A program made the translations under genes and the position numbers. Positions 1 to 46,505 of a stretch of DNA of 64,000 bases are shown one piece after another (position 1 is the first letter of the stretch; each line of letters begins with the position of its first letter). The notes below the pieces were generated by a model. It searched no databases and was not told where the DNA came from. It was given only the letters and a program-made list of their open reading frames with translations. The stretch lies in assembly GCF_988243305.1 (NCBI RefSeq), contig NZ_OZ547136.1; one strand, written 5' to 3'.

Positions 1-93
1 GAAAATAGCGTCTTTCTGCATGTTCATATCGTCGCGGTTCAGACATGAAGGGCTGTGAGAGATCAGAACATGAATATTGATAAAGTTAGACAT
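1..93 (-). CDS. casC: CasC/Cas7 (Cascade backbone subunit), N-terminal 31 codons only; gene continues beyond window start
   Basis: Reverse complement of 1-93 translates [31 protein letters not shown], the recalled CasC N-terminus; ATG at 93-91 lies 12 bp downstream of the casB stop. Confidence 0.8.
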
Positions 94-2504: not shown

Positions 2505-5171
2505 TTATTTGGGATTTGCAGGGATGACTCTGGTCATCCCTTCATCCCGAGTGTAGGTAATAACAATATTATTACCCTGCCAGATCCATCCATCCTGATT
2601 CTGTTTCCCTTCCAGCCAAAGTAACCCATCTTCATCTACTACTTCAGAAAAACTACGTTTCCAGGTGAAGGGTACATTGACGCGATTAAGTGCTAACGCC
2701 TCATACTGCTGTTCATGACTTAGGTCCTCGTAGACCTGGCCATCGAGCAGTTGTTTACCTGAAGACGTTTGTACATAAGGCAATAATGGCAGGCTCATTT
2801 CCCCATCCCTCGTTACCGCAAGAATGGTTTCATCGTTATCCTGCAAGCTATATTCTTCAGCCCACTGCAGAACCTTACGAGCCTTGAACCTTTTTTCACA
2901 CTCGGCGCTTTCAAACTTATCCATGCCTTTGATGACCCATTCTGGCTCATCCATTTCCGCATCATCGTAAATGCTATCCAGCCATTGCCGGTAGGCATCA
3001 GGGAAAAATAAGGATGCTCCATTAAGTTCCTCAATATGTTGCTGCGTCCGCCACATGACTCTAACGTTGCTATAAATATGCTCATGTCGTCCGTAACCTT
3101 CGCCATCAGGCAGCAAAATGGTGGCAAGAGGAATCTCAAAACCAACGGGGCGATATTTACGATGATGGCGATGTAAACGGCCCAATCGTTGGAAAAGCAA
3201 ATCTGCGGGACAATGCTGAGTAATTAACCAATCAAAATCAACGTCGAGTGATTGTTCCACGACCTGTGTGGCAACAAGTATTCTTCCAACATTTCGCTCC
3301 CCATTTTTCCCAAAATTACTAATAACACGATTCTCTTTTTCACGGCGATCGTTCAGCGTAAAGCGCGCATGAAACAAATCTATATCTACTTGCGTGTTAT
3401 TTAGTTCCTTTAACCGTTGGTGGCATAGTTGTGCAACATCAACCAAATTGCAGATAAGACAGACTTGTGCACCCGCATTTGCCGCTGCGATCATTCGCTC
3501 TAACATCGTAAGGTCAGGTAACATGTCAGCTAAATAAATAGGTTCTGGCTGAATCGAAAAGCGGGGCGGGAGTTGTTCTGGATGAGCTAACAGATCAAAA
3601 CGTTGCGCACCATTCACACCTCGCCAGTTAATGAGTGGATATGCGGAGTTATTTTCCTCTGGATCTGTATGCAGACCATAAGTATCCAGAAGTTTCTGTT
3701 TTTGTTTCATTGGTAGAGTTGCGGAAAGAAGAATAACACTCCCCCCCACATCAGCCTGAGCCTTGAGCACAGCCTCCAGCAAGCCGTTCATATACGTGTC
3801 GTAAGCATGAACTTCATCAACAATTAAAACACTTCGACCAATTCCCAAACCACGGATAAAGCGGTGTTTAACTGGCAATACCGATATCAACACCTGATCA
3901 ATCGTGCAAACGCCTATTTGCCCAAGAAACACTTTCTTATTGCTTTGTGACAACCATTGGCAACACTGAACCCACGCTTCTTCTTGCCCCTGCTCAGTAA
4001 ATGCGCGTGATTTTATTGATTGAAAAAGGTGGTTAAAACGTGAATTACCATGAGCAAGAATAAGATTTGGGGAGGTAAATAAACGGCTCGCGTTCGCTTC
4101 CATTCTGCTGAGCATTGCATTTGCAGTAGCTTGTGTAGGGAGGGCAAAAATAACACTATCCGCAAGTTGTTGGTCAATAAGTTTCCAGGCATAGGCCAGC
4201 GCTGTTTCGGTTTTACCTGATCCCGTAGGTGCCTCAATCACCGTCAGCCCGGGAGCTGTAGGAAGAGCATCAACCAACACCTGTAATTGTCTTGGTTGAT
4301 AGCCATTGTCCAGTAAGGCATGTACGCCGTCATAACTACGCTTATTTGATACAAGGCCACTCAACTCAAGTACCCGACACGCATCCTGTTGTCTATCCTG
4401 AAAATATTTTCTTAGCGCTTGTATGCCTGAAGGTGCATCTTCTTTGAATAGAAAGGTATCCGTTGTGGTCCAGGAACCTAACCAGTCAGCAAGCGAGCAA
4501 AAACCTGCTAACAATGATGAACAATCAGGTGGTATATCGTTTATAGATAACCCGGCTGGTGTTAAAAATAATGCTTCGAGTACAGATATCCACTCCTCAC
4601 GAGCCTGTTTATCTTGCGCAGCATAAGATGCCAGAGAAGCTGGCATTTCCCAACGCGACTTATCTTGATCCTGGGAATGTAATATAAAACCATGATGTCC
4701 TGTAACGGCCTCTACCCAAGGAAACCAGGACTCATAAGGATGAGGAGCGGCATCAAAAAAACTGAAAAAATCCCCGGGAGATTGCTCTGAAAGTGAATCC
4801 TGGTTAAACCAATACAGACCGGCTGCACCATGATTAAATTTACGGCACATTTGTGTTGATGGACCATTAAGTGATGGCGTTGCAGGATTTAATTTCAGCC
4901 AACTTTCTGCTGATTTATATTGGAATCGTATATCAAACTTTCCGATATCATGAAGGGCAATGAAAAATAACAGCCAGGCTTTCACCTTCTGTTTTGATAG
5001 CATTTCATTTCGGCAAAAAGCATTTTGTAGTACGACTGATTGATCCCACCAGCAATCTGCAACAGCTGCAACATCCAGGCAATGATAAATCAACAGATGA
5101 ATATCATTTCCTTTCGTCAGGCTTTTTGAGGATTTCCCCCAGTAATGACATATATATTTAAAAGGTTCCAT
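2505..5171 (-). CDS. cas3: Cas3 HD-nuclease/SF2 helicase (888 aa)
   Basis: ORF 888 aa; HD motif (ALHDIGKFD), Walker A (APTGSGKTE) and DEVH box (VDEVHAYD) visible in translation. Confidence 0.95.
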   Translation of the reverse strand: MEPFKYICHYWGKSSKSLTKGNDIHLLIYHCLDVAAVADCWWDQSVVLQNAFCRNEMLSKQKVKAWLLFFIALHDIGKFDIRFQYKSAESWLKLNPATPSLNGPSTQMCRKFNHGAAGLYWFNQDSLSEQSPGDFFSFFDAAPHPYESWFPWVEAVTGHHGFILHSQDQDKSRWEMPASLASYAAQDKQAREEWISVLEALFLTPAGLSINDIPPDCSSLLAGFCSLADWLGSWTTTDTFLFKEDAPSGIQALRKYFQDRQQDACRVLELSGLVSNKRSYDGVHALLDNGYQPRQLQVLVDALPTAPGLTVIEAPTGSGKTETALAYAWKLIDQQLADSVIFALPTQATANAMLSRMEANASRLFTSPNLILAHGNSRFNHLFQSIKSRAFTEQGQEEAWVQCCQWLSQSNKKVFLGQIGVCTIDQVLISVLPVKHRFIRGLGIGRSVLIVDEVHAYDTYMNGLLEAVLKAQADVGGSVILLSATLPMKQKQKLLDTYGLHTDPEENNSAYPLINWRGVNGAQRFDLLAHPEQLPPRFSIQPEPIYLADMLPDLTMLERMIAAANAGAQVCLICNLVDVAQLCHQRLKELNNTQVDIDLFHARFTLNDRREKENRVISNFGKNGERNVGRILVATQVVEQSLDVDFDWLITQHCPADLLFQRLGRLHRHHRKYRPVGFEIPLATILLPDGEGYGRHEHIYSNVRVMWRTQQHIEELNGASLFFPDAYRQWLDSIYDDAEMDEPEWVIKGMDKFESAECEKRFKARKVLQWAEEYSLQDNDETILAVTRDGEMSLPLLPYVQTSSGKQLLDGQVYEDLSHEQQYEALALNRVNVPFTWKRSFSEVVDEDGLLWLEGKQNQDGWIWQGNNIVITYTRDEGMTRVIPANPK

Positions 5172-5470
5172 TAATAGCCTCCCTGTTTTTTTAGTATTAT
5201 CGATGATATCAGTGGACTATTTTTCGATGCTGCTCATAAATATCGAATTACAGTGATATACACATGTCTTGCCTCCCTGCAAAGAAGAGACTAACATTCG
5301 AATTGCTTAGGTTCGAACGCTGGCCTCAGGTTGATAGAAATATCGCCTGGGGCTTTTGTCCATCTGGAACCTCGCGAATGCTTAACGCCAGACAGCCTCA
5401 AGCACCCAACGCCATTCTATACCTGATAATTCTTCCAGCGGCGTTCACGTTTAAAATCAGGAATGCTGCT

Positions 5471-19845: not shown

Positions 19846-21324
19846 ATGTCGAAAAAATACATCATAGGGATTGATGGCGGAAGTCAGAGCACAAAAGTGG
19901 TGATGTATGATCTGGAAGGTAATGTGGTTTGCGAAGGCAAAGGCTTATTGCAGCCGATGCACACGCCAGATGCCGATACCGCAGAACATCCTGACGACGA
20001 TTTATGGGCATCATTATGTTTTGCCGGTCACGATTTGATGAGTCAGTTTGCCGGGAATAAAGAAGATATTGTCGGTATTGGTCTGGGATCCATCCGTTGC
20101 TGCCGTGCGTTATTGAAAGCCGATGGCACGCCAGCTGCGCCGTTGATTAGCTGGCAGGATGCACGCGTTACACGCCCTTACGAACATACGAATCCTGACG
20201 TGGCATATGTCACCTCTTTTTCAGGTTATCTGACGCATCGCTTAACCGGCGAGTTTAAAGACAATATCGCCAACTATTTTGGTCAGTGGCCGGTGGATTA
20301 TAAGACCTGGGCATGGAGTGAAGATGCCGCAGTCATGGAGAAGTTTAATATCCCCCGTCATATGCTGTTTGATGTGCAAATGCCGGGCACTGTTCTTGGG
20401 CATATCACTCCTCAAGCCGCGCTGGCGACACATTTCCCAGCTGGGCTGCCGGTTGTTTGTACCACCAGTGATAAACCGGTAGAAGCACTGGGAGCCGGGT
20501 TACTGGATGATGAAACTGCGGTAATTTCTCTTGGCACTTACATCGCGTTGATGATGAACGGCAAAGCACTGCCGAAAGATCCGGTGGCGTACTGGCCGAT
20601 TATGTCTTCTATTCCGCAAACATTGCTGTATGAAGGTTACGGTATTCGCAAAGGCATGTGGACGGTGAGCTGGCTACGCGACATGTTAGGCGAGTCGTTA
20701 ATTCAGGATGCCAAAGCACAGGATCTTTCACCGGAAGATTTGCTCAACAAAAAAGCGTCTTGTGTGCCGCCAGGCTGTAATGGTCTGATGACGGTGCTGG
20801 ACTGGCTGACCAATCCGTGGGAACCGTACAAACGCGGGATTATGATTGGCTTTGATTCCAGCATGGATTACGCATGGATATATCGTTCGATACTGGAAAG
20901 CGTGGCGCTGACGCTGAAGAACAATTACGACAATATGTGTAATGAAATGAATCACTTTGCAAAGCATGTGATCATTACTGGCGGCGGTTCGAACAGCGAT
21001 CTGTTTATGCAGATTTTTGCCGACGTGTTCAACCTTCCGGCACGCCGTAACGCCATTAATGGTTGTGCAAGCCTGGGGGCAGCGATTAATACGGCGGTAG
21101 GTCTGGGGCTATACCCGGATTACGCAACGGCTGTCGACAAAATGGTTCGCGTGAAAGATATCTTTATGCCTGTTGAGAACAATGCCAAACGCTACGACGC
21201 GATGAATAAAGGCATTTTCAAGGAGTTAACCAAACATACTGATGTAATCCTGAAAAAATCGTATGAAGTGATGCATGGGGAATTGGGGAATGCGGATTCG
21301 ATCCAGAGCTGGTCGAATGCGTAA
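19846..21324 (+). CDS. ygcE: FGGY-family carbohydrate kinase (492 aa)
   Basis: N-terminal IGIDGGSQSTKVVMYD actin-fold kinase motif. Confidence 0.9.
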   Translation: MSKKYIIGIDGGSQSTKVVMYDLEGNVVCEGKGLLQPMHTPDADTAEHPDDDLWASLCFAGHDLMSQFAGNKEDIVGIGLGSIRCCRALLKADGTPAAPLISWQDARVTRPYEHTNPDVAYVTSFSGYLTHRLTGEFKDNIANYFGQWPVDYKTWAWSEDAAVMEKFNIPRHMLFDVQMPGTVLGHITPQAALATHFPAGLPVVCTTSDKPVEALGAGLLDDETAVISLGTYIALMMNGKALPKDPVAYWPIMSSIPQTLLYEGYGIRKGMWTVSWLRDMLGESLIQDAKAQDLSPEDLLNKKASCVPPGCNGLMTVLDWLTNPWEPYKRGIMIGFDSSMDYAWIYRSILESVALTLKNNYDNMCNEMNHFAKHVIITGGGSNSDLFMQIFADVFNLPARRNAINGCASLGAAINTAVGLGLYPDYATAVDKMVRVKDIFMPVENNAKRYDAMNKGIFKELTKHTDVILKKSYEVMHGELGNADSIQSWSNA

Positions 21325-21370
21325 GTGAGGAAGGCCGGGCGGGAAACTGCCCGGCCTGAACATACCTGAA

Positions 21371-21508
21371 TGGTTATCCCCGCTGACGTGGGGAACATAA
21401 GTTCGACAACTTAAAAAATGATAACAAGTCCGGTTTATCCCCGCTGATGCAGGGAACATAATAAAAACTTTAACTAGTTCGGTTTATCCCTGTTGTTACA
21501 AGGAATAT
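21371..21508 (-). CRISPR. Degenerate CRISPR remnant: 3 decayed type I-E repeats with 32-bp and 20-bp spacers
   Basis: Plus-strand repeats tggttatccccgctgacgtggggaacat (21371-21398), cggtttatccccgctgatgcagggaacat (21431-21459), cggtttatccctgttgttacaaggaatat (21480-21508). Confidence 0.6.
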
Positions 21509-21962
21509 TAACTACACTCGATGTCCTTAGAATAAAAGACAACGCAAACCGTACTTTATCAATTTTCATTTAAAGTATGAACTGGATATCTTTATTCATA
21601 AGAACTATTCATCAACAGCCTATAGAGACGGTTATGTAAAACCACTCATTAGCCTCAAAACAAAGACAAATTTCCAGATTTATTACTTAATCAATGAATA
21701 ATAAGCTTAAAAAACAATCTATTATCCTAAAGAAAAAATTAACAAACATCAATTCAATATTAAAAAAATAATATATGATAATTTCTTAATGATTTAAGTA
21801 TCATACAACTAACACTTTAATTAAATTTGATTTTTTGTATCGATAATTGTGAACTTATCATATATGGAGAGCTATTTTGAACATGAGGTGTTACGTGGAT
21901 ATATTGCTTAATACGAGTACTGCTAATATAAAAACTTGAGAAAGAGATAACGGGTTATATGG

Positions 21963-22418
21963 TGGTTTATCCCCGCTGGCGCGGGGAACTCCGTCAGTGT
22001 GCCAGTTGCTACTGTTTCCCATACGGTTTATCCCCGCTGACGCGGGGAACTCATCAGTGATATCCAACATTGCGGAGCTAAACGCGGTTTATCCCCGCTG
22101 GCGCGGGGAACTCTATAAATGTGCCATATACGGCGTTTGTTGCCTCGGTTTATCCCCGCTGGCGCGGGGAACTCCTCCCGGTGATGCGGGTTATGTGGCC
22201 TGCCGCCGGTTTATCCCCGCTGGCGCGGGGAACTCTTCGCCGCGTCAACAATTCGGACCTGTAAATCCGGTTTATCCCCGCTGGCGCGGGGAACTCATCC
22301 GGCGAACGCGCTACAGAGTACAGTTCACCGGTTTATCCCCGCTGGCGCGGGGAACTCGGAAACCGCCCCGGCGGTGGTTAGCTGTTTGCCGGTTTATCCC
22401 CGCTGGCGCGGGGAACTC
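21963..22418 (-). CRISPR. Type I-E CRISPR array, 8 repeats (29 bp) and 7 spacers (32 bp each)
   Basis: Plus-strand repeat cggtttatccccgctggcgcggggaactc at 21963, 22024, 22085, 22146, 22207, 22268, 22329, 22390; reverse complement is the canonical E. coli repeat, so crRNA is from the minus strand. Repeat at 21963 starts with t, repeat at 22024 has gctgAcgc. Confidence 0.95.
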
Positions 22419-22560
22419 TCTAAACATAACCTATTATTAATTAATAATTTTTTAAGCCAGTCACAATCTACCAACTTTATAGTATCACACAAACAACACA
22501 TCCATTATGTTAAAGAGCACTTAATCCATTGATTGAAAAGCTAAATATTTAAAGTAATCC
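22419..22560 (-). promoter_or_regulatory. Putative CRISPR leader (AT-rich) adjacent to the newest repeat
   Basis: AT-rich sequence tctaaacataacctattattaattaataattttttaagcc... upstream of the first repeat in the direction of transcription; degenerate repeats lie at the opposite end. Confidence 0.5.
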
Positions 22561-22757
22561 TATACCGACTAAAATCTACCAAACTTTACCGCAATAATTT
22601 TCACTCCAGCGAAAAATTAATGCCGCAGAATTTGTAGAGAATGCTAATGATTAGCCCTGGATGGGTAAAATGGAGGAGTTTTCAGAGGCGACAAACAATA
22701 TAAATGAGTAGAAATCTTTACAGGTTCCACCCATTTATAACGCTTATAAATGTTTAA

Positions 22758-23429
22758 TCAGGCAATATTTAGATATTTATGTGTTTGCATCGACAAACGC
22801 CAATTACGAGCAATGCAGGTTTCAATGCACAATCGTGTGGCATCATCCTTTTGGCTAATCGGCTGCAGTGCAATGACTCGCGGTTTATCATCGGTCAGCG
22901 TCGCCAAAAGTTCATCCAGTGCTTCAATATCACGTACGCGTCCCACTGGATGCTTGATTTCGTTGGCTCGCTCCAGTGCCTGTGACAACACTTCATAGCC
23001 GCCGCGCATGTTCAGCTTTGGCGATACGGTAACCCAGGTATTCGGTGTGCAGCGTACCTCATGAGTACCACTGGTTTCGATCTGGCAGCTAAAACCGTTC
23101 TTTTCGAGCAGGTCAGTCAGTGGCAGCAAATCATGAATGCAAGGCTCACCACCCGTAATCACCACATGCCGCGCGGTGTATCCCTGGCGACCAATGACAG
23201 CCAGCAAGTCTTCACTGCTCGCCGCCCCCCACTTATCACTCTCTTTGGTCTTCGCCAGAATGCTGAAAAGGGAGACTTCCCGATCCTCAAGCTTTTCCCA
23301 GGTGTGTTTGGTGTCGCACCAGGCACAGCCAACCGGGCATCCCTGTAAACGAATAAAAATGGCGGGGACGCCGGTAAAGTAACCCTCACCTTGCAGGGTC
23401 TGGAACATCTCGTTAATCGGGTACTGCAT
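22758..23429 (-). CDS. queE: 7-carboxy-7-deazaguanine synthase, radical SAM (223 aa)
   Basis: 223 aa ORF with the cysteine cluster QGCPVGCAWCDTKHTW. Confidence 0.92.
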   Translation of the reverse strand: MQYPINEMFQTLQGEGYFTGVPAIFIRLQGCPVGCAWCDTKHTWEKLEDREVSLFSILAKTKESDKWGAASSEDLLAVIGRQGYTARHVVITGGEPCIHDLLPLTDLLEKNGFSCQIETSGTHEVRCTPNTWVTVSPKLNMRGGYEVLSQALERANEIKHPVGRVRDIEALDELLATLTDDKPRVIALQPISQKDDATRLCIETCIARNWRLSMQTHKYLNIA

Positions 23430-23601: not shown

Positions 23602-24204
23602 ATGCTCAGAATATTCATCGTAATTATATTTATTTTCAATTTATCAGGCTGTGGATATAACGATATTCAAACCTATGATGAGCAGGTTAACGCCTCCTGG
23701 TCTGAGGTATTGAATCAATATCAACGTCGCGCCGATCTTATTCCTAATCTTGTCGCCAGCATTAAAGGTTATTCCAGCCATGAACGAGATGTACTGGAAG
23801 CCGTAACATTGGCTCGTAGCCAGGCTAATCGCGCCAGTAGCGATCTTCAGCAAACTCCGGGCGATGAACAAAAATTACAAGCCTGGCAACAGGCTCAAGC
23901 GCAGGTGACTCGCACTCTCGGTCAGTTAACGATAATTAGTGAGCGTTACCCTGAGTTAAAATCTCAGGAACTCTATCAAAATTTAATGGTACAGCTTGAA
24001 GGAAGTGAAAATCGGATTGCCGTTGCGCGAGGAAGATATATTAAAGCCATTGAACAATATAATGTCACTATCCGCAAATTCCCCGCTGTGTTAACCGCAA
24101 AGGTCATGGATTACACACCAAAGAAAAATTATTTGCCGGATGATGTCGCCGCAGTAAGTAAAGCCCCAACAATAGATTTTAGCCAGAATGCTAATGCTCA
24201 TTAA
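23602..24204 (+). CDS. LemA-family protein, predicted lipoprotein (200 aa)
   Basis: N-terminal signal with lipobox NLSGC (Cys17), followed by a LemA-like helical domain; first gene of a 4-gene operon. Confidence 0.8.
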   Translation: MLRIFIVIIFIFNLSGCGYNDIQTYDEQVNASWSEVLNQYQRRADLIPNLVASIKGYSSHERDVLEAVTLARSQANRASSDLQQTPGDEQKLQAWQQAQAQVTRTLGQLTIISERYPELKSQELYQNLMVQLEGSENRIAVARGRYIKAIEQYNVTIRKFPAVLTAKVMDYTPKKNYLPDDVAAVSKAPTIDFSQNANAH

Positions 24205-24217
24205 GCGGGGAAGTTCT

Positions 24218-25111
24218 ATGCGAAATTTTATCTTCCTTATGGCTTTCTTCTGTTCATCTGTGTTTGCCACACAAATTCCAGTACCTGAATCACCCAAGTA
24301 TGTGAATGACTTAACCGGCACATTAACAAACAGCGAAGTAAACACCCTGACCAACCAGATTAAAGCCCTGACGCAAAAAAACTACGCACAGTTGGTCGTG
24401 TTAGTGGTTGAAACAACTGGCGATGAAACCATCGAGCAGTACGCAACGCGGGTATTCGATAGCTGGAAACCGGGTGATAAAGACCACGATGATGGCGTTC
24501 TACTGTTAGTCGCCTGGCAGGATCATACCGTGCGTATTGAAATCGGTTACGGACTGGAAGGTATTATTACGGATGCACAGTCCGGGAAAATTATTCGCAA
24601 CAGTATTATTCCGGCATTTAAAAAAGGGGACCTGGCTGGTGGTTTGCAAAAGGGAATCAGCGATATTGAAAGTCGTCTGACGGGGAATAATTTAGCAACG
24701 ATAACACCGACCGATCACCCTTTGCCTTTTAGCGGTTGGTGGGCTTTGTTAGTCTGGGCGATAGTACTGACGTTTATTTCTGCCAGAGGATATATCAAAA
24801 CGCTGGGAGTAATTTGCTTCGCAGCTATTGTACTGGCCTTTGTTTTACCTATAGCAGGCTTCAGCGGAAGCTGGGGAGTACTCGCAACATTACTCTGCTT
24901 CGCCACACCGTTCCTGGCTGTCGCCATCGCTTTTACCCCCTTCGGCAAAAAGGTTCGGGATTCGATGCGTGATGCCAACCAGCCATCACGCCATACAAGA
25001 AGCAATTCTTCCTCCCACTATTCATCATCGTCATCCTCTTCATTCAACAATGACAATTTCAGCGGTGGTGGCGGTTCATCTGGTGGCGGTGGCGCTTCCG
25101 GGCGCTGGTAA
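24218..25111 (+). CDS. TPM-domain (YgcG-like) membrane protein, paralog 1 (297 aa)
   Basis: Signal peptide MRNFIFLMAFFCSSVFA, TPM-like core (GVLLLVAWQDHTVRIEIGYGLEG), 3 predicted TM helices, tail ...FSGGGGSSGGGGASGRW; 13-bp gap after lemA stop. Confidence 0.8.
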   Translation: MRNFIFLMAFFCSSVFATQIPVPESPKYVNDLTGTLTNSEVNTLTNQIKALTQKNYAQLVVLVVETTGDETIEQYATRVFDSWKPGDKDHDDGVLLLVAWQDHTVRIEIGYGLEGIITDAQSGKIIRNSIIPAFKKGDLAGGLQKGISDIESRLTGNNLATITPTDHPLPFSGWWALLVWAIVLTFISARGYIKTLGVICFAAIVLAFVLPIAGFSGSWGVLATLLCFATPFLAVAIAFTPFGKKVRDSMRDANQPSRHTRSNSSSHYSSSSSSSFNNDNFSGGGGSSGGGGASGRW

Positions 25112-25125
25112 CAAAAGGAATTGAT

Positions 25126-26274
25126 ATGCGTATTTTTCTCTTACTTCTGATGCTATGCGGTTTTCAGGTATTCGCTGAACAATTGCCTTCAGTAACTGAC
25201 TTAACCGGGACATTAACGACAGAAGAACAAACTGCTTTAACTCAACAATTACAGACTCTCGAGCAGCAAAACCACTTCCAGGTGGCCGTGTTGGTCACGC
25301 CGACCACAGGGGGCAAAAACATTAAACTTGCAGCCTCGCAGAGATACGGGGTATATCACTGGAAACCCGTTGGAGAGAAGCGATATGGCGAAGGTATCTT
25401 AATTCTCGTCGTATGGCCGGAAGGGCTGGCGTCAATGAAGATTGGACATGGACTGGAACAGATGTTGCCGCCGGAACAAGCTTCGCAAATTGTTCGTTAC
25501 CATATGCAGCCAGAATTCGAAAAAAACAATCTCTTTGCTGGATTAACGGGCGGAATTGAAAGCATCGCACAGTTTACCCATATCAAAGCGAACCTTAGCC
25601 CTTTGGATGCTTTAGCCAATCATCTGTTTGCTAATCCGCAACGTTCGCTGCCTTGTCTTGCCTGGACACTGCTGATGATCGTTGCCATCGTTGTCCTCTG
25701 GCGATTTGCCAGCCGCCCAGGGCGTGGCATATGGATGATATCGATGATTACCCCTATGGTCTGGTTTTTCTCCTTTCAGGACGATGTCATCATTCGGCGG
25801 GTATCGGTCGTTTGTTTTAGTTTATTGTTAGCAACAACCTGCAAGCAGCGTCTCGCGGTAGTTTTTAATATGTGCCGCGTATTTCCTATGATGCTGACCC
25901 CAAAAAATAAAAACGCTAAAGTGAAAAAACAAAAGAAGACTCCGCAGGTTCGTGAATCAGGACGAAATTCATTGTTTGTCGTGATGCTGATAATTATTGT
26001 GGGATGGTGCCTGGTGTTCGCCAGTAATAAAGATATTGCATTCATCTCAACAATTATTGGGTTAATTGATCATTTTATCGGCCCAATAACCATTGCTGGC
26101 ATCGTTCTGCTGATCATTGTGGCCAAATTTACTGGCAATCTTAAGCTGGGATCAGGAGAAAAAAGCAACAGGAAAACGGGGAATCGTAATGCTCATTCTC
26201 GCTCTTCGTCGAGAAATTCTTTCCGCGGTGGTGGCGGTTCTTCAGGAGGCGGCGGTTCATCCGGCCGTTGGTGA
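25126..26274 (+). CDS. TPM-domain (YgcG-like) membrane protein, paralog 2, diverged (382 aa)
   Basis: Signal peptide MRIFLLLLMLCGFQVFA, diverged TPM core (GILILVVWPEGLASMKIGHGLE), lysine-rich segment KNKNAKVKKQKK, TM helices, tail RGGGGSSGGGGSSGRW. Confidence 0.75.
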   Translation: MRIFLLLLMLCGFQVFAEQLPSVTDLTGTLTTEEQTALTQQLQTLEQQNHFQVAVLVTPTTGGKNIKLAASQRYGVYHWKPVGEKRYGEGILILVVWPEGLASMKIGHGLEQMLPPEQASQIVRYHMQPEFEKNNLFAGLTGGIESIAQFTHIKANLSPLDALANHLFANPQRSLPCLAWTLLMIVAIVVLWRFASRPGRGIWMISMITPMVWFFSFQDDVIIRRVSVVCFSLLLATTCKQRLAVVFNMCRVFPMMLTPKNKNAKVKKQKKTPQVRESGRNSLFVVMLIIIVGWCLVFASNKDIAFISTIIGLIDHFIGPITIAGIVLLIIVAKFTGNLKLGSGEKSNRKTGNRNAHSRSSSRNSFRGGGGSSGGGGSSGRW

Positions 26275-26279
26275 TCGTA

Positions 26280-27185
26280 ATGCGCTTAATCTTTATTCTA
26301 CTTGCTTTGTGGAGCCTTCCCGGGCTTGCCCAGCAAATTGCTGTGCCGGAGCTGCGCCAACAAGTGACTGATATTACTGGTACGTTAAGCACGTCTGAAC
26401 AGCAATCGCTAACGCAGCAGCTGCAGGATATTACACATAAAACACGGGCGCAGGTCGCTGTATTAGTAGTGCCGTCCACCGGAGACGATTCCATTGAACA
26501 ATATGCAGCACGCGTTTTTGATAGCTGGAAACTGGGAGATAAGCAGAGAAACGATGGTATTTTACTTCTGGTTGCCTGGGAGGAGCATGCTGTTCGTATT
26601 GAGGTTGGCTACGGGCTGGAAGGGGTGGTTACCGACCTGCAAGCGGCGAAGATTATCAGAGATATTTTGATCCCTGCCTTCAAAAGTGATGACCTGATGG
26701 GTGGATTAACACTGGCAAGCGAAAATATCGGCGCGCTTCTGTTGAATGGTGAATTATCGGAAGACAGGGGGGATTATTACAGTATCAATCCCTTTATTCC
26801 ATTATCGCTTGCTGTAATTATATTGCTGGCGGTACTTTCATATTTTATTGTTTTTACCGATCCGTCGAATTTACCCTGGATCACTCTCACTGGCGCCATT
26901 TACGGGATGGTATTCCTCTATGTTGCCGAGCCAGGACCATGGACCAATTTAATCGTTGCCTGCGGTATGCTCACGCCTTTTGCCATCGTACCACTGCTTA
27001 TTTTTTGGCTTATCGTTAATAAAAAGCTACGCGCTAAATACAAGAAGCTCGGTAAAGAAAGAGCTTCAAGAAAAGGTTCTTCTTCATCCTCTTCCGGTGG
27101 CGGCTCAAGTGGCGGAGGCTCAGGCGGTGGCTTTAGCGGCGGGGGCGGTTCTTCTGGCGGTGGCGGCGCGTCCGGTCGCTGGTAA
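26280..27185 (+). CDS. ygcG: TPM-domain membrane protein, paralog 3 (301 aa), probable counterpart of K-12 ygcG
   Basis: Signal peptide MRLIFILLALWSLPGLA, TPM core (GILLLVAWEEHAVRIEVGYGLEG), TM helices, tail GGGGSSGGGGASGRW; last gene before the terminator hairpin and eno, the position ygcG holds in K-12. Confidence 0.75.
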   Translation: MRLIFILLALWSLPGLAQQIAVPELRQQVTDITGTLSTSEQQSLTQQLQDITHKTRAQVAVLVVPSTGDDSIEQYAARVFDSWKLGDKQRNDGILLLVAWEEHAVRIEVGYGLEGVVTDLQAAKIIRDILIPAFKSDDLMGGLTLASENIGALLLNGELSEDRGDYYSINPFIPLSLAVIILLAVLSYFIVFTDPSNLPWITLTGAIYGMVFLYVAEPGPWTNLIVACGMLTPFAIVPLLIFWLIVNKKLRAKYKKLGKERASRKGSSSSSSGGGSSGGGSGGGFSGGGGSSGGGGASGRW

Positions 27186-27217: not shown

Positions 27218-28643
27218 TAATGCCGATCAGTTAAGGATCAGTTGACCGATCCAGTGGCTGTGTAAGAATCCGGAAACGCTCACTTGTTTCCGGATTTTTT
27301 TATGCACATTGGACAGGCTCTTGATCTGGTATCCCGTTACGATTCTCTGCGTAACCCACTGACTTCTCTGGGGGATTACCTCGACCCCGAACTCATCTCT
27401 CGTTGCCTTGCCGAATCAGGTACTGTAACGCTACGCAAGCGCCGTCTTCCCCTCGAAATGATGGTCTGGTGTATTGTTGGCATGGCGCTTGAGCGTAAAG
27501 AACCTCTTCACCAGATTGTGAATCGCCTGGACATCATGCTGCCGGGCAATCGCCCCTTCGTTGCCCCCAGTGCCGTTATTCAGGCCCGCCAGCGCCTGGG
27601 AAGTGAGGCTGTCCGCCGCGTGTTCACGAAAACAGCGCAGCTCTGGCATAACGCCACGCCGCATCCGCACTGGTGCGGCCTGACCCTGCTGGCCATCGAT
27701 GGTGTGTTCTGGCGCACACCGGATACACCAGAGAACGATGCAGCCTTCCCCCGCCAGACACATGCCGGGAACCCGGCGCTCTACCCGCAGGTCAAAATGG
27801 TCTGCCAGATGGAACTGACCAGCCATCTGCTGACGGCTGCAGCCTTCGGCACGATGAAGAACAGCGAAAATGAGCTTGCTGAGCAACTTATAGAACAAAC
27901 CGGCGATAACACTCTGACGTTAATGGATAAAGGTTATTACTCACTGGGACTGTTAAATGCCTGGAGCCTGGCGGGAGAACACCGCCACTGGATGATACCT
28001 CTCAGAAAGGGAGCGCAATATGAAGAGATCAGAAAACTGGGTAAAGGCGATCATCTGGTGAAGCTGAAAACCAGCCCGCAGGCACGAAAAAAGTGGCCGG
28101 GACTGGGAAATGAAGTGACAGCCCGCCTGCTGACCGTGACGCGCAAAGGAAAAGTCTGCCATCTGCTGACGTCGATGACGGACGCCATGCGCTTCCCCGG
28201 AGGAGAAATGGCGGATCTGTACAGTCATCGCTGGGAAATCGAACTGGGATACAGGGAGATAAAACAGACGATGCAACTGAGCAGGCTGACGCTGAGAAGT
28301 AAAAAACCGGAGCTTGTGGAGCAAGAGCTGTGGGGTGTCTTACTGGCTTATAATCTGGTGAGATATCAGATGATTAAAATGGCGGAACATCTGAAAGGTT
28401 ACTGGCCGAATCAACTGAGTTTCTCAGAATCATGTGGAATGGTGATGAGAATGCTGATGACATTGCAGGGCGCTTCACCGGGACGTATACCGGAGCTGAT
28501 GCGCGATCTTGCAAGTATGGGACAACTTGTGAAATTACCGACAAGAAGGGAAAGGGCCTTCCCGAGAGTGGTAAAGGAGAGGCCCTGGAAATACCCCACA
28601 GCCCCGAAAAAGAGCCAGTCAGTTGCTTAACTGACTGGCATTA
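27218..28643 (+). mobile_element. Insertion sequence IS4, complete (1426 bp)
   Basis: Imperfect terminal inverted repeats TAATGCCGATCAGTTAAGG (27218-27236) and TAATGCCAGTCAGTTAAGC (reverse complement of 28625-28643); single 442-aa transposase ORF; 1426 bp matches the recalled IS4 size; flanking direct repeats. Confidence 0.9.
27302..28630 (+). CDS. insG: IS4 transposase (442 aa from [14 protein letters not shown])
   Basis: ORF track 27284..28630; recognised as IS4-family transposase sequence. Confidence 0.88.
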
Positions 28644-46094: not shown

Positions 46095-46140
46095 AAAGCA
46101 ACCTCAATAAGAAAAACTGCCGCGAAGGATAGCAGGAATA

Positions 46141-46505
46141 AAAAAAGGGAGCACTGTATTCACAGTGCTCCCGGTTCGTTTCGCAGCATTCCAGCTACTT
46201 TTGTTGCTCCCTGCTCATCCTTGACAACTTTTCCTCTGGCCTTGCGGCCAATCGTTCATCCTGAACTATTGCTTCCTGCTCACACCACCCCGATGTGATA
46301 CTTCATCCTGAAGTGTCCCTGGCCTTCCTGACCCACCGAATCATCCTGACCGGTTCTCATTCTCCATCCTGGAGGTGTCCTTTAACGCGTCCTGCGTCAT
46401 CCTCTTCGCTTCATCCAGAAGCCTTTCCCTGAAACACCATCCTGGTGTGTCCTTCAGAAGTGTCATCATCCTGATGTTCACTTCGTTGTCTGACTCCCTG
46501 TCGAC
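46141..46505 (-). ncRNA. csrB: CsrB small RNA (CsrA-sequestering), about 365 nt
   Basis: Minus strand begins GUCGACAGGGAGUCAGACAACGAAG... and carries about 18 CAGGA(U/A)G-type GGA motifs (plus-strand catcctg/ttcctg/tccctg); ends in terminator hairpin gggagcactg-tattca-cagtgctccc plus U-run. Confidence 0.85.

Follow-up and report, generated by a model that had tools for sequence, protein, structure and literature searches.

In Escherichia coli strains with a type I-E system, the CRISPR2.3 array and its leader are found between ygcE and ygcF (PMC3903273, PMC3737337). The ygcE-ygcF locus as a whole has been defined as CRISPR-II, in which CRISPR2.2 and CRISPR2.3 lie 0.5 kb apart (PMC3903273), and a review of the K-12 system names the same locus CRISPR-2 (PMC10011333). 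Transcription of CRISPR-2 in K-12 depends on H-NS, its likely start being situated some 95 nt upstream of the first repeat, and under laboratory conditions H-NS keeps the type I-E system of E. coli silent (PMC10011333). A passage of PMC3737337, citing Yosef et al., states that the first 40–60 bp of leader 2.3 are needed for expansion of the array. The array CRISPR2.1 (CRISPR-I), located next to cas2, shares its repeat family and type I-E machinery with the array described here; it differs in sitting at iap-cas2, outside the DNA analyzed, and in having a different leader sequence. The leaders of CRISPR2.1 and CRISPR2.3 both start with TCTAAA and, as read by eye, both carry ACCAAC at the same offset, about 52–57 nt from the repeat.

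Genomic setting of the array

The window, which is the whole stretch of 64,000 nucleotides analyzed, is a piece of E. coli chromosome. Of 5,426 complete genomes, 5,425 have a match to the first 22 kb. This part, which flanks the array, was most similar to that of Z1323HEC0462 (NZ_CP148331), the closest genome, with 99.2% identity, and of NY1601 (NZ_CM135959.1), with 99.1% identity, while the next best strain reached about 97.3%. K-12 MG1655 is collinear with positions 1–22355, from casC to CRISPR-II, at 96% identity. According to the annotation of the closest genome, the gene order is casC-casB-casA-cas3-cysHIJ-queD-ygcNOP-ygcQRSUW-yqcE-ygcE-array-queE. The array (21963–22418, with the crRNA sense on the minus strand) is flanked on its low-coordinate side by ygcE (19846–21324, plus strand, placed by the closest-genome annotation and by comparison with K-12), and on the other side by queE (ygcF; 22758–23429, minus strand), which lies upstream of the leader and on the same strand as the array. 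The array thus occupies the ygcE-ygcF position, and the orthologous feature is annotated in RefSeq as CRISPR.

Three cas genes are intact in the window, all on the minus strand: cas3 (2505–5171, 888 aa), casA (cse1; 581–2089, 502 aa) and casB (cse2; 106–588, 160 aa). The encoded proteins are 96.5%, 98.0% and 98.8% identical in amino acids to those of K-12, respectively, and the scores of all three exceed the NCBIfam equivalog cutoffs for type I-E by a wide margin. Given this protein identity of 96.5–98.8%, the three genes belong to the K-12-type cas variant. Only the first 31 codons (93 nt) of casC (cas7e; 1–93, minus strand) are contained in the window, as the gene runs beyond its edge; casD, casE, cas1, cas2 and CRISPR2.1 lie beyond the window start and are present in the closest relative. 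An earlier sequence-only reading of this DNA had placed the array about 17 kb from the cas genes and separated from them by cysHIJ, queD and ygc genes, which agrees with the gene order above and with a distance of 16.8 kb between the start of cas3 (5171) and the first repeat.

Taken with the repeat, leader and spacer data given below, this setting leads us to assign the array, with a probability of about 0.95, to the known type I-E CRISPR-II (CRISPR2.3) locus of E. coli, K-12-like both in its anatomy and in its inferred working. The locus is thus already known and ordinary, and it is among the most studied of CRISPR arrays. The sequence-only reading had not given it the name CRISPR-II or CRISPR2.3.

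A second, decayed set of repeats was found just past the ygcE stop codon, 454 nt before the first repeat of the array. This remnant of CRISPR2.2 (21370–21508, minus strand) consists of three decayed repeats with 5–10 mismatches to the array repeat, at 21370–21398 (7 mismatches), 21431–21459 (5) and 21480–21508 (10), together with a spacer-like unit of 32 nt and another unit of 20 nt. The same remnant is present in K-12, NY1601 and EA2 about 0.5 kb before CRISPR2.3, with a spacing of 502–503 nt as in the window, and the CRISPR2.2/CRISPR2.3 arrangement has been described (PMC3903273). It was absent from the sequence-only reading.

Structure of the array

The repeat scan identified eight copies of the 29-nt repeat CGGTTTATCCCCGCTGGCGCGGGGAACTC (plus strand) within 21963–22418, following one another at a period of exactly 61 nt and starting at 21963, 22024, 22085, 22146, 22207, 22268, 22329 and 22390. 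We numbered the repeats R1 to R8 and the spacers S1 to S7 from low to high coordinate, i.e. from the leader-distal end. R1 and R2 each have one mismatch to CGGTTTATCCCCGCTGGCGCGGGGAACTC, and the remaining six repeats have none. The number of matches expected by chance was 0.00 in 100 dinucleotide-preserving shuffles, and no further copy with three or fewer mismatches was found elsewhere in the window. The seven spacers are each 32 nt long, or 33 nt when the PAM-derived base is counted, and are mutually unrelated; none of them recurs in the rest of the window at up to eight mismatches. Both the count of eight repeats and seven uniform 32-nt spacers and the seven spacer sequences listed by the sequence-only reading were recovered here without change.

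Read on the minus strand, the array repeat is GAGTTCCCCGCGCCAGCGGGGATAAACCG, a "type 2" repeat of E. coli type I-E arrays and the repeat of K-12 as well. In crRNA sense, the repeat was predicted to fold into a hairpin with a 7-bp stem and a 4-nt loop (−15.1 kcal/mol, z = −3.6), which corresponds to the partly palindromic hairpin typical of Cas6e substrates. Compared with CRISPR-2 of K-12 MG1655, the array has the same locus, flanking genes, 29-nt repeat core and 61-nt period, the same terminal repeat (TGGTTTATCC...AACTC) and a near-identical leader, with the CRISPR2.2 remnant likewise 0.5 kb off and the cas genes equally distant. The two arrays differ in their contents. K-12 CRISPR2.3 contains six spacers and the window seven, none of which is common to both, and the internal repeats of the window end in AACTC (the "CRISPR-T" form), whereas those of K-12 CRISPR2.3 end in AACAC.

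The two repeats with a mismatch are the ones farthest from the leader. R1 (21963–21991, minus strand), the terminal leader-distal repeat beginning with TGGTTTATCC, carries T instead of C at its first plus-strand base (21963), and R2 (22024–22052, minus strand) carries a G to A change at repeat position 16 (22039), giving the variant GCTGACGCG. In other repeats, the first plus-strand base of the 29 nt is derived from the PAM and lies outside the 28-nt duplicon (PMC3737337, PMC10011333). Since R1 has no neighbouring spacer on that side, its T is flanking sequence and not a mutated repeat base. The TGGTTTATCC terminal repeat is also present in K-12, strain 135, EA2 and the closest relative Z1323HEC0462, and its conservation in the first three means that the T is no decay mutation of the window array. 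The A of R2 is situated in the hairpin loop, and both variants leave the fold and the stem unchanged. The R2 variant is also the R2 of strain 135 and the standard repeat of some CRISPR2.1 arrays, and it is a variant common among E. coli repeats. The sequence-only reading had connected the leader-distal position of the two variant repeats with the age polarity of the array. Their position and the polarity stand, but both features are inherited and do not reflect decay within the array.

Copies of the spacers in other arrays and their sources

All spacers are given here with their plus-strand coordinates, the crRNA sense being the minus strand. The two leader-distal spacers are known from other CRISPR arrays. 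S1 (21992–22023), the oldest spacer, is present with one mismatch in CRISPR-II of strain 135, as direct inspection showed, and BLAST added three further genomes; it is found together with S2 in four CRISPR arrays at 95–97% identity. Exact copies of S2 (22053–22084) are present in about 295 of the 5,426 complete genomes of E. coli, and every annotation listed for these copies is CRISPR; the two copies inspected, in strain 135 (one mismatch) and 64A:C (exact), are both in CRISPR-II. CRISPR-II of strain 135 (NZ_CP080260) has the same R1-S1-R2-S2 segment as the window, with one substitution per spacer and with both variant repeats, but after S2 continues with three unrelated spacers. The sole match in PLSDB was rejected as a plasmid source, being a mislabelled chromosome with S2 inside its CRISPR-II array.

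S3 (22114–22145) has an exact copy only in Z1323HEC0462, whose CRISPR-II retains it as the sole spacer between two repeats (R1-S3-R). A variant of S3 with four transitions is present in CRISPR2.1 of strain 63-2, and matches of 27/30 were found by BLAST in arrays of 16 further genomes. A protospacer for S3 (28/32 with an AAG PAM) was found in a J-like tail-tip gene of an HK97-like prophage in JNE151685. Because this sole prophage match has a mismatch at seed position 2, S3 is not expected to block that phage. S5 (22236–22267) matches the same prophage at 30/32, again with an AAG PAM, 4.7 kb from the S3 site and on the same strand. This prophage (seen in NZ_AP027258.1, 2191000–2225000) had no close relative in INPHARED at the sensitivity used.

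S6 (22297–22328) matches exactly (32/32), with an AAG PAM, within a gene annotated "phage tail protein" in contractile-tail prophages of SE11, E24377A and others, where the neighbouring genes encode baseplate, sheath and tube proteins. By our own estimate from the identity bands, about 10 genomes contain the protospacer, as does one IMG/VR contig; the INPHARED phage search returned only 26/29 matches for S6 (E ~0.9). SE11 has the S6 protospacer in its prophage and also has spacer S7 in its own CRISPR2.1.

S4 (22175–22206) is unique to the window; a relative in CRISPR2.3 of EA2 differs by four transitions and a 1-nt shift of register. Among the 5,426 complete genomes, no exact copy of S4 was found, and neither S5 nor S6 was found as a spacer in any other array. 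S7 (22358–22389), the leader-proximal and newest spacer, is identical to a spacer in the middle of CRISPR2.1 in about 104 genomes (inspected in AR_452, SE11 and PM7), and a variant with one mismatch is present in CRISPR-II of strain 06-00048. The neighbouring spacers and the repeat subtypes of S7 differ across all three contexts, and none of the 5,426 complete genomes has S7 at the array position that it has in the window.

The sequence-only reading had proposed a BLAST comparison of the spacers, which gave prophage matches for S3, S5 and S6 and none for S1, S2, S4 and S7. For these four, no source was found in INPHARED, PLSDB or IMG/VR, or outside CRISPR arrays in the complete E. coli genomes. 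Pattern scans were also carried out, in which the five flipped-out crRNA positions were set to N. They gave no match for S1, S2, S3, S4 and S7 in IMG/VR, for S7+CTT and S4 in the GTDB representative genomes, or for S7+CTT and S2+CTT in JGI metagenomes, and S6+CTT, used as positive control, recovered one IMG/VR contig. As judged from these alignments, an origin from a mobile element with the type I-E PAM is found for three of the seven spacers (S3, S5 and S6), all of them traced to tail regions of E. coli prophages, which shows that temperate phages of E. coli are the source of at least part of the spacers, taken beside an AAG PAM.

Turnover of the array and traces of adaptation

Although the flanks are so similar, the arrays of the closest strains have little in common. 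CRISPR2.3 contains seven spacers in the window, one in Z1323HEC0462 and six in NY1601, and only S3 is common to any of them (the window and Z1323HEC0462); the six spacers of NY1601 are all different from those of the window. The wholly different array of NY1601 points to fast turnover in this lineage, by acquisition, deletion or replacement, and by this comparison the turnover is unusually fast relative to the divergence of the flanks (99.1–99.2% identity). The window spacer set is found in no complete RefSeq E. coli genome, and could therefore be used as a strain marker.

Several spacers seem to have been gained more than once. The counterparts of S3 and S4 in other strains are about 12% different, with all differences being transitions, while the flanks differ by at most 4%, which makes their independent acquisition, from diverged phages at one and the same PAM-defined site, likelier than mutation in place. 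Since the neighbours and repeat subtypes of S7 differ in its three contexts, one of which has a 1-nt variant, independent acquisition is favoured for S7 as well, and its origin by recombination between arrays appears the less favoured explanation. Together, the counterparts of S3, S4 and S7 in other strains suggest that the same protospacer sites have been sampled repeatedly in the wild.

We tentatively speculate that S4 to S7 are the trace of natural, fairly recent and possibly primed adaptation by the normally silent type I-E system of E. coli, although we regard this as rather improbable at present. In its favour, the genomes with 99% identical flanks have a single spacer or an array of unrelated spacers between them. 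Among 5,426 complete genomes, no further array contains S4, S5 or S6, none has S7 where the window has it, and none includes S4 to S7 in CRISPR2.3. S5 and S6 also trace back to prophages of E. coli, at sites that have the correct AAG PAM. In addition, S3 and S5 lie on one prophage and on the same strand, the pattern expected from primed adaptation. The three prophage-derived spacers with a correct PAM, two of which (S3 and S5) come from one phage and one strand, add a small piece of evidence on natural acquisition of phage spacers by the E. coli type I-E system; the array as a whole has slight significance beyond annotation.

Proposed working and present state of the system

By analogy with K-12 (PMC10011333), a weak promoter in the leader, sensitive to H-NS, would drive minus-strand transcription of the array, and Cas6e (CasE) would cut each repeat hairpin to release 61-nt crRNAs. 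The crRNAs would then be loaded into Cascade (CasA-E), which would find matching DNA flanked by AAG and recruit Cas3, leading to degradation of the target. New 33-nt spacers would be inserted by Cas1-Cas2 together with IHF at the junction between the leader and R8 (PMC10011333); given insertion at this junction, S7 would be the latest acquisition. Since H-NS silences the system in laboratory E. coli, that of the window may or may not be active in immunity at present.

The most serious alternative is that the array is a genuine CRISPR-II but now an inert relic, which, whether or not it is transcribed, confers no immunity, gains no spacers and changes by recombination or deletion only. We consider this unlikely, yet it survives better than any other alternative and has several points in its favour. 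Expression of the type I-E cas genes is silenced by H-NS in normal growth, most spacers of E. coli lack a match among known phages (PMC10011333), and CRISPR-II persists even in strains that lack cas genes (PMC3903273). In the window itself, four of the seven spacers have no source in the collections searched, spacer loss is what distinguishes the closest genome, and NY1601, at 99.1% flank identity, has a wholly different array, which fits replacement by recombination. Against a relic, cas3, casA and casB are intact and the leader is conserved. Moreover, the leader-ward spacers S4, S5 and S6 are in no other array searched, and S5 and S6 were traced to prophages with AAG; unique leader-ward spacers with such sources are what acquisition at the leader end would leave. 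A K-12-like type I-E array remains our preferred reading.

Orientation of the array and its leader

Four independent lines of evidence support the minus strand as the crRNA sense, with the leader on the high-coordinate side, as the sequence-only reading had proposed from the repeat orientation. First, on the plus strand the repeat reads as the reverse complement of GAGTTCCCCGCGCCAGCGGGGATAAACCG, the crRNA-sense repeat of type I-E. Second, the AT-rich region (GC 0.28) on the minus strand from the queE stop to R8 (22419–22757) matches the CRISPR2.3 leader of K-12, from which it differs at one position in the first 115 nt and at nine in 200 nt; the integration signals and Pcrispr2 are expected in this leader 2.3. 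Third, the protospacers of S3, S5 and S6 each have CTT on the high-coordinate side, which is a 5′-AAG-3′ PAM on the other strand, and by our own arithmetic random flanks would give AAG in 3/3 cases with a probability of about (1/64)^3. Fourth, the spacers common to other strains, S1 and S2, are at the low-coordinate end. A C directly follows the 3′ end of every spacer on the plus strand (7/7), and such a C is the complement of the G that the spacer brings along from the AAG PAM (PMC10011333, PMC3737337). No promoter on the minus strand of the leader was detected by a scan for the sigma-70 consensus at the stringency used, and the promoter is therefore placed by homology to K-12 only.

Transcription of the plus strand, with a functional leader in the AT-rich stretch of 454 nt between the CRISPR2.2 remnant and CRISPR2.3 (21509–21962), is very improbable. 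The stretch has a GC content of 26% and plus-strand sigma-70-like matches at 21877–21905 and 21936–21963, but the total of seven matches in the promoter scan is not clearly above that of shuffles (4.7 ± 1.9), and the stretch has no significant similarity to leader 2.3. The repeat on the plus strand is in the wrong sense compared with K-12, the PAM-derived base and the PAMs of 3/3 protospacers are on the high-coordinate side, the flank on that side is the conserved leader 2.3, and the shared spacers are at the low-coordinate end. We also considered the stretch as a decayed copy of leader 2.3, and rejected this as well, since its best local alignment score was 27 compared with 23 ± 2.8 for shuffles (maximum 37).

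That the feature is no CRISPR at all, but a REP/BIME-like interspersed repeat or a chance tandem array, is refuted by the agreement of period, repeat, hairpin, leader, locus and cas neighbours with CRISPR-II of K-12 and has next to no probability left, although the array region was missing from the output of Tandem Repeats Finder, which is explained by the spacers being unrelated to one another, and an Rfam search at the gathering threshold gave no CRISPR family match, whereas RefSeq calls the ortholog CRISPR.

Other features in the window

An IS4 copy of 1,426 bp (27218–28643) lies between the last TPM/YgcG-like gene and eno, and is absent in both the closest relative and K-12. Its transposase ORF (27284–28630, 448 aa) has the Nterm_IS4 and DDE_Tnp_1 domains, and its ends are the inverted repeats TAATGCC...GTTAAG. 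An overlap of 14 nt in the alignment at the junction suggests a target-site duplication, in hairpin-like sequence just downstream of eno. Downstream of queE, a region of about 3.6 kb (23602–27185) contains a LemA gene followed by three genes with TPM domains (YgcG-like), where K-12 has yqcG-ygcG only. The second gene of this group (24188–25111) is intact in the window, whereas the annotation of the closest relative gives it as a truncated pseudogene.

Two small RNA features were also observed, both on the minus strand. Between cas3 and cysH, a full-length match to the Rfam family "sok" (RF01794, 104 bits) was found at 5251–5407; K-12 annotates sokX at the corresponding place on the opposite (plus) strand, and no Hok-like ORF was recognized by eye among the six small ORFs listed at 5251–5407. 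A full-length CsrB sRNA (Rfam RF00018, 383 bits) is located at 46137–46496, as expected at this position of the E. coli map.
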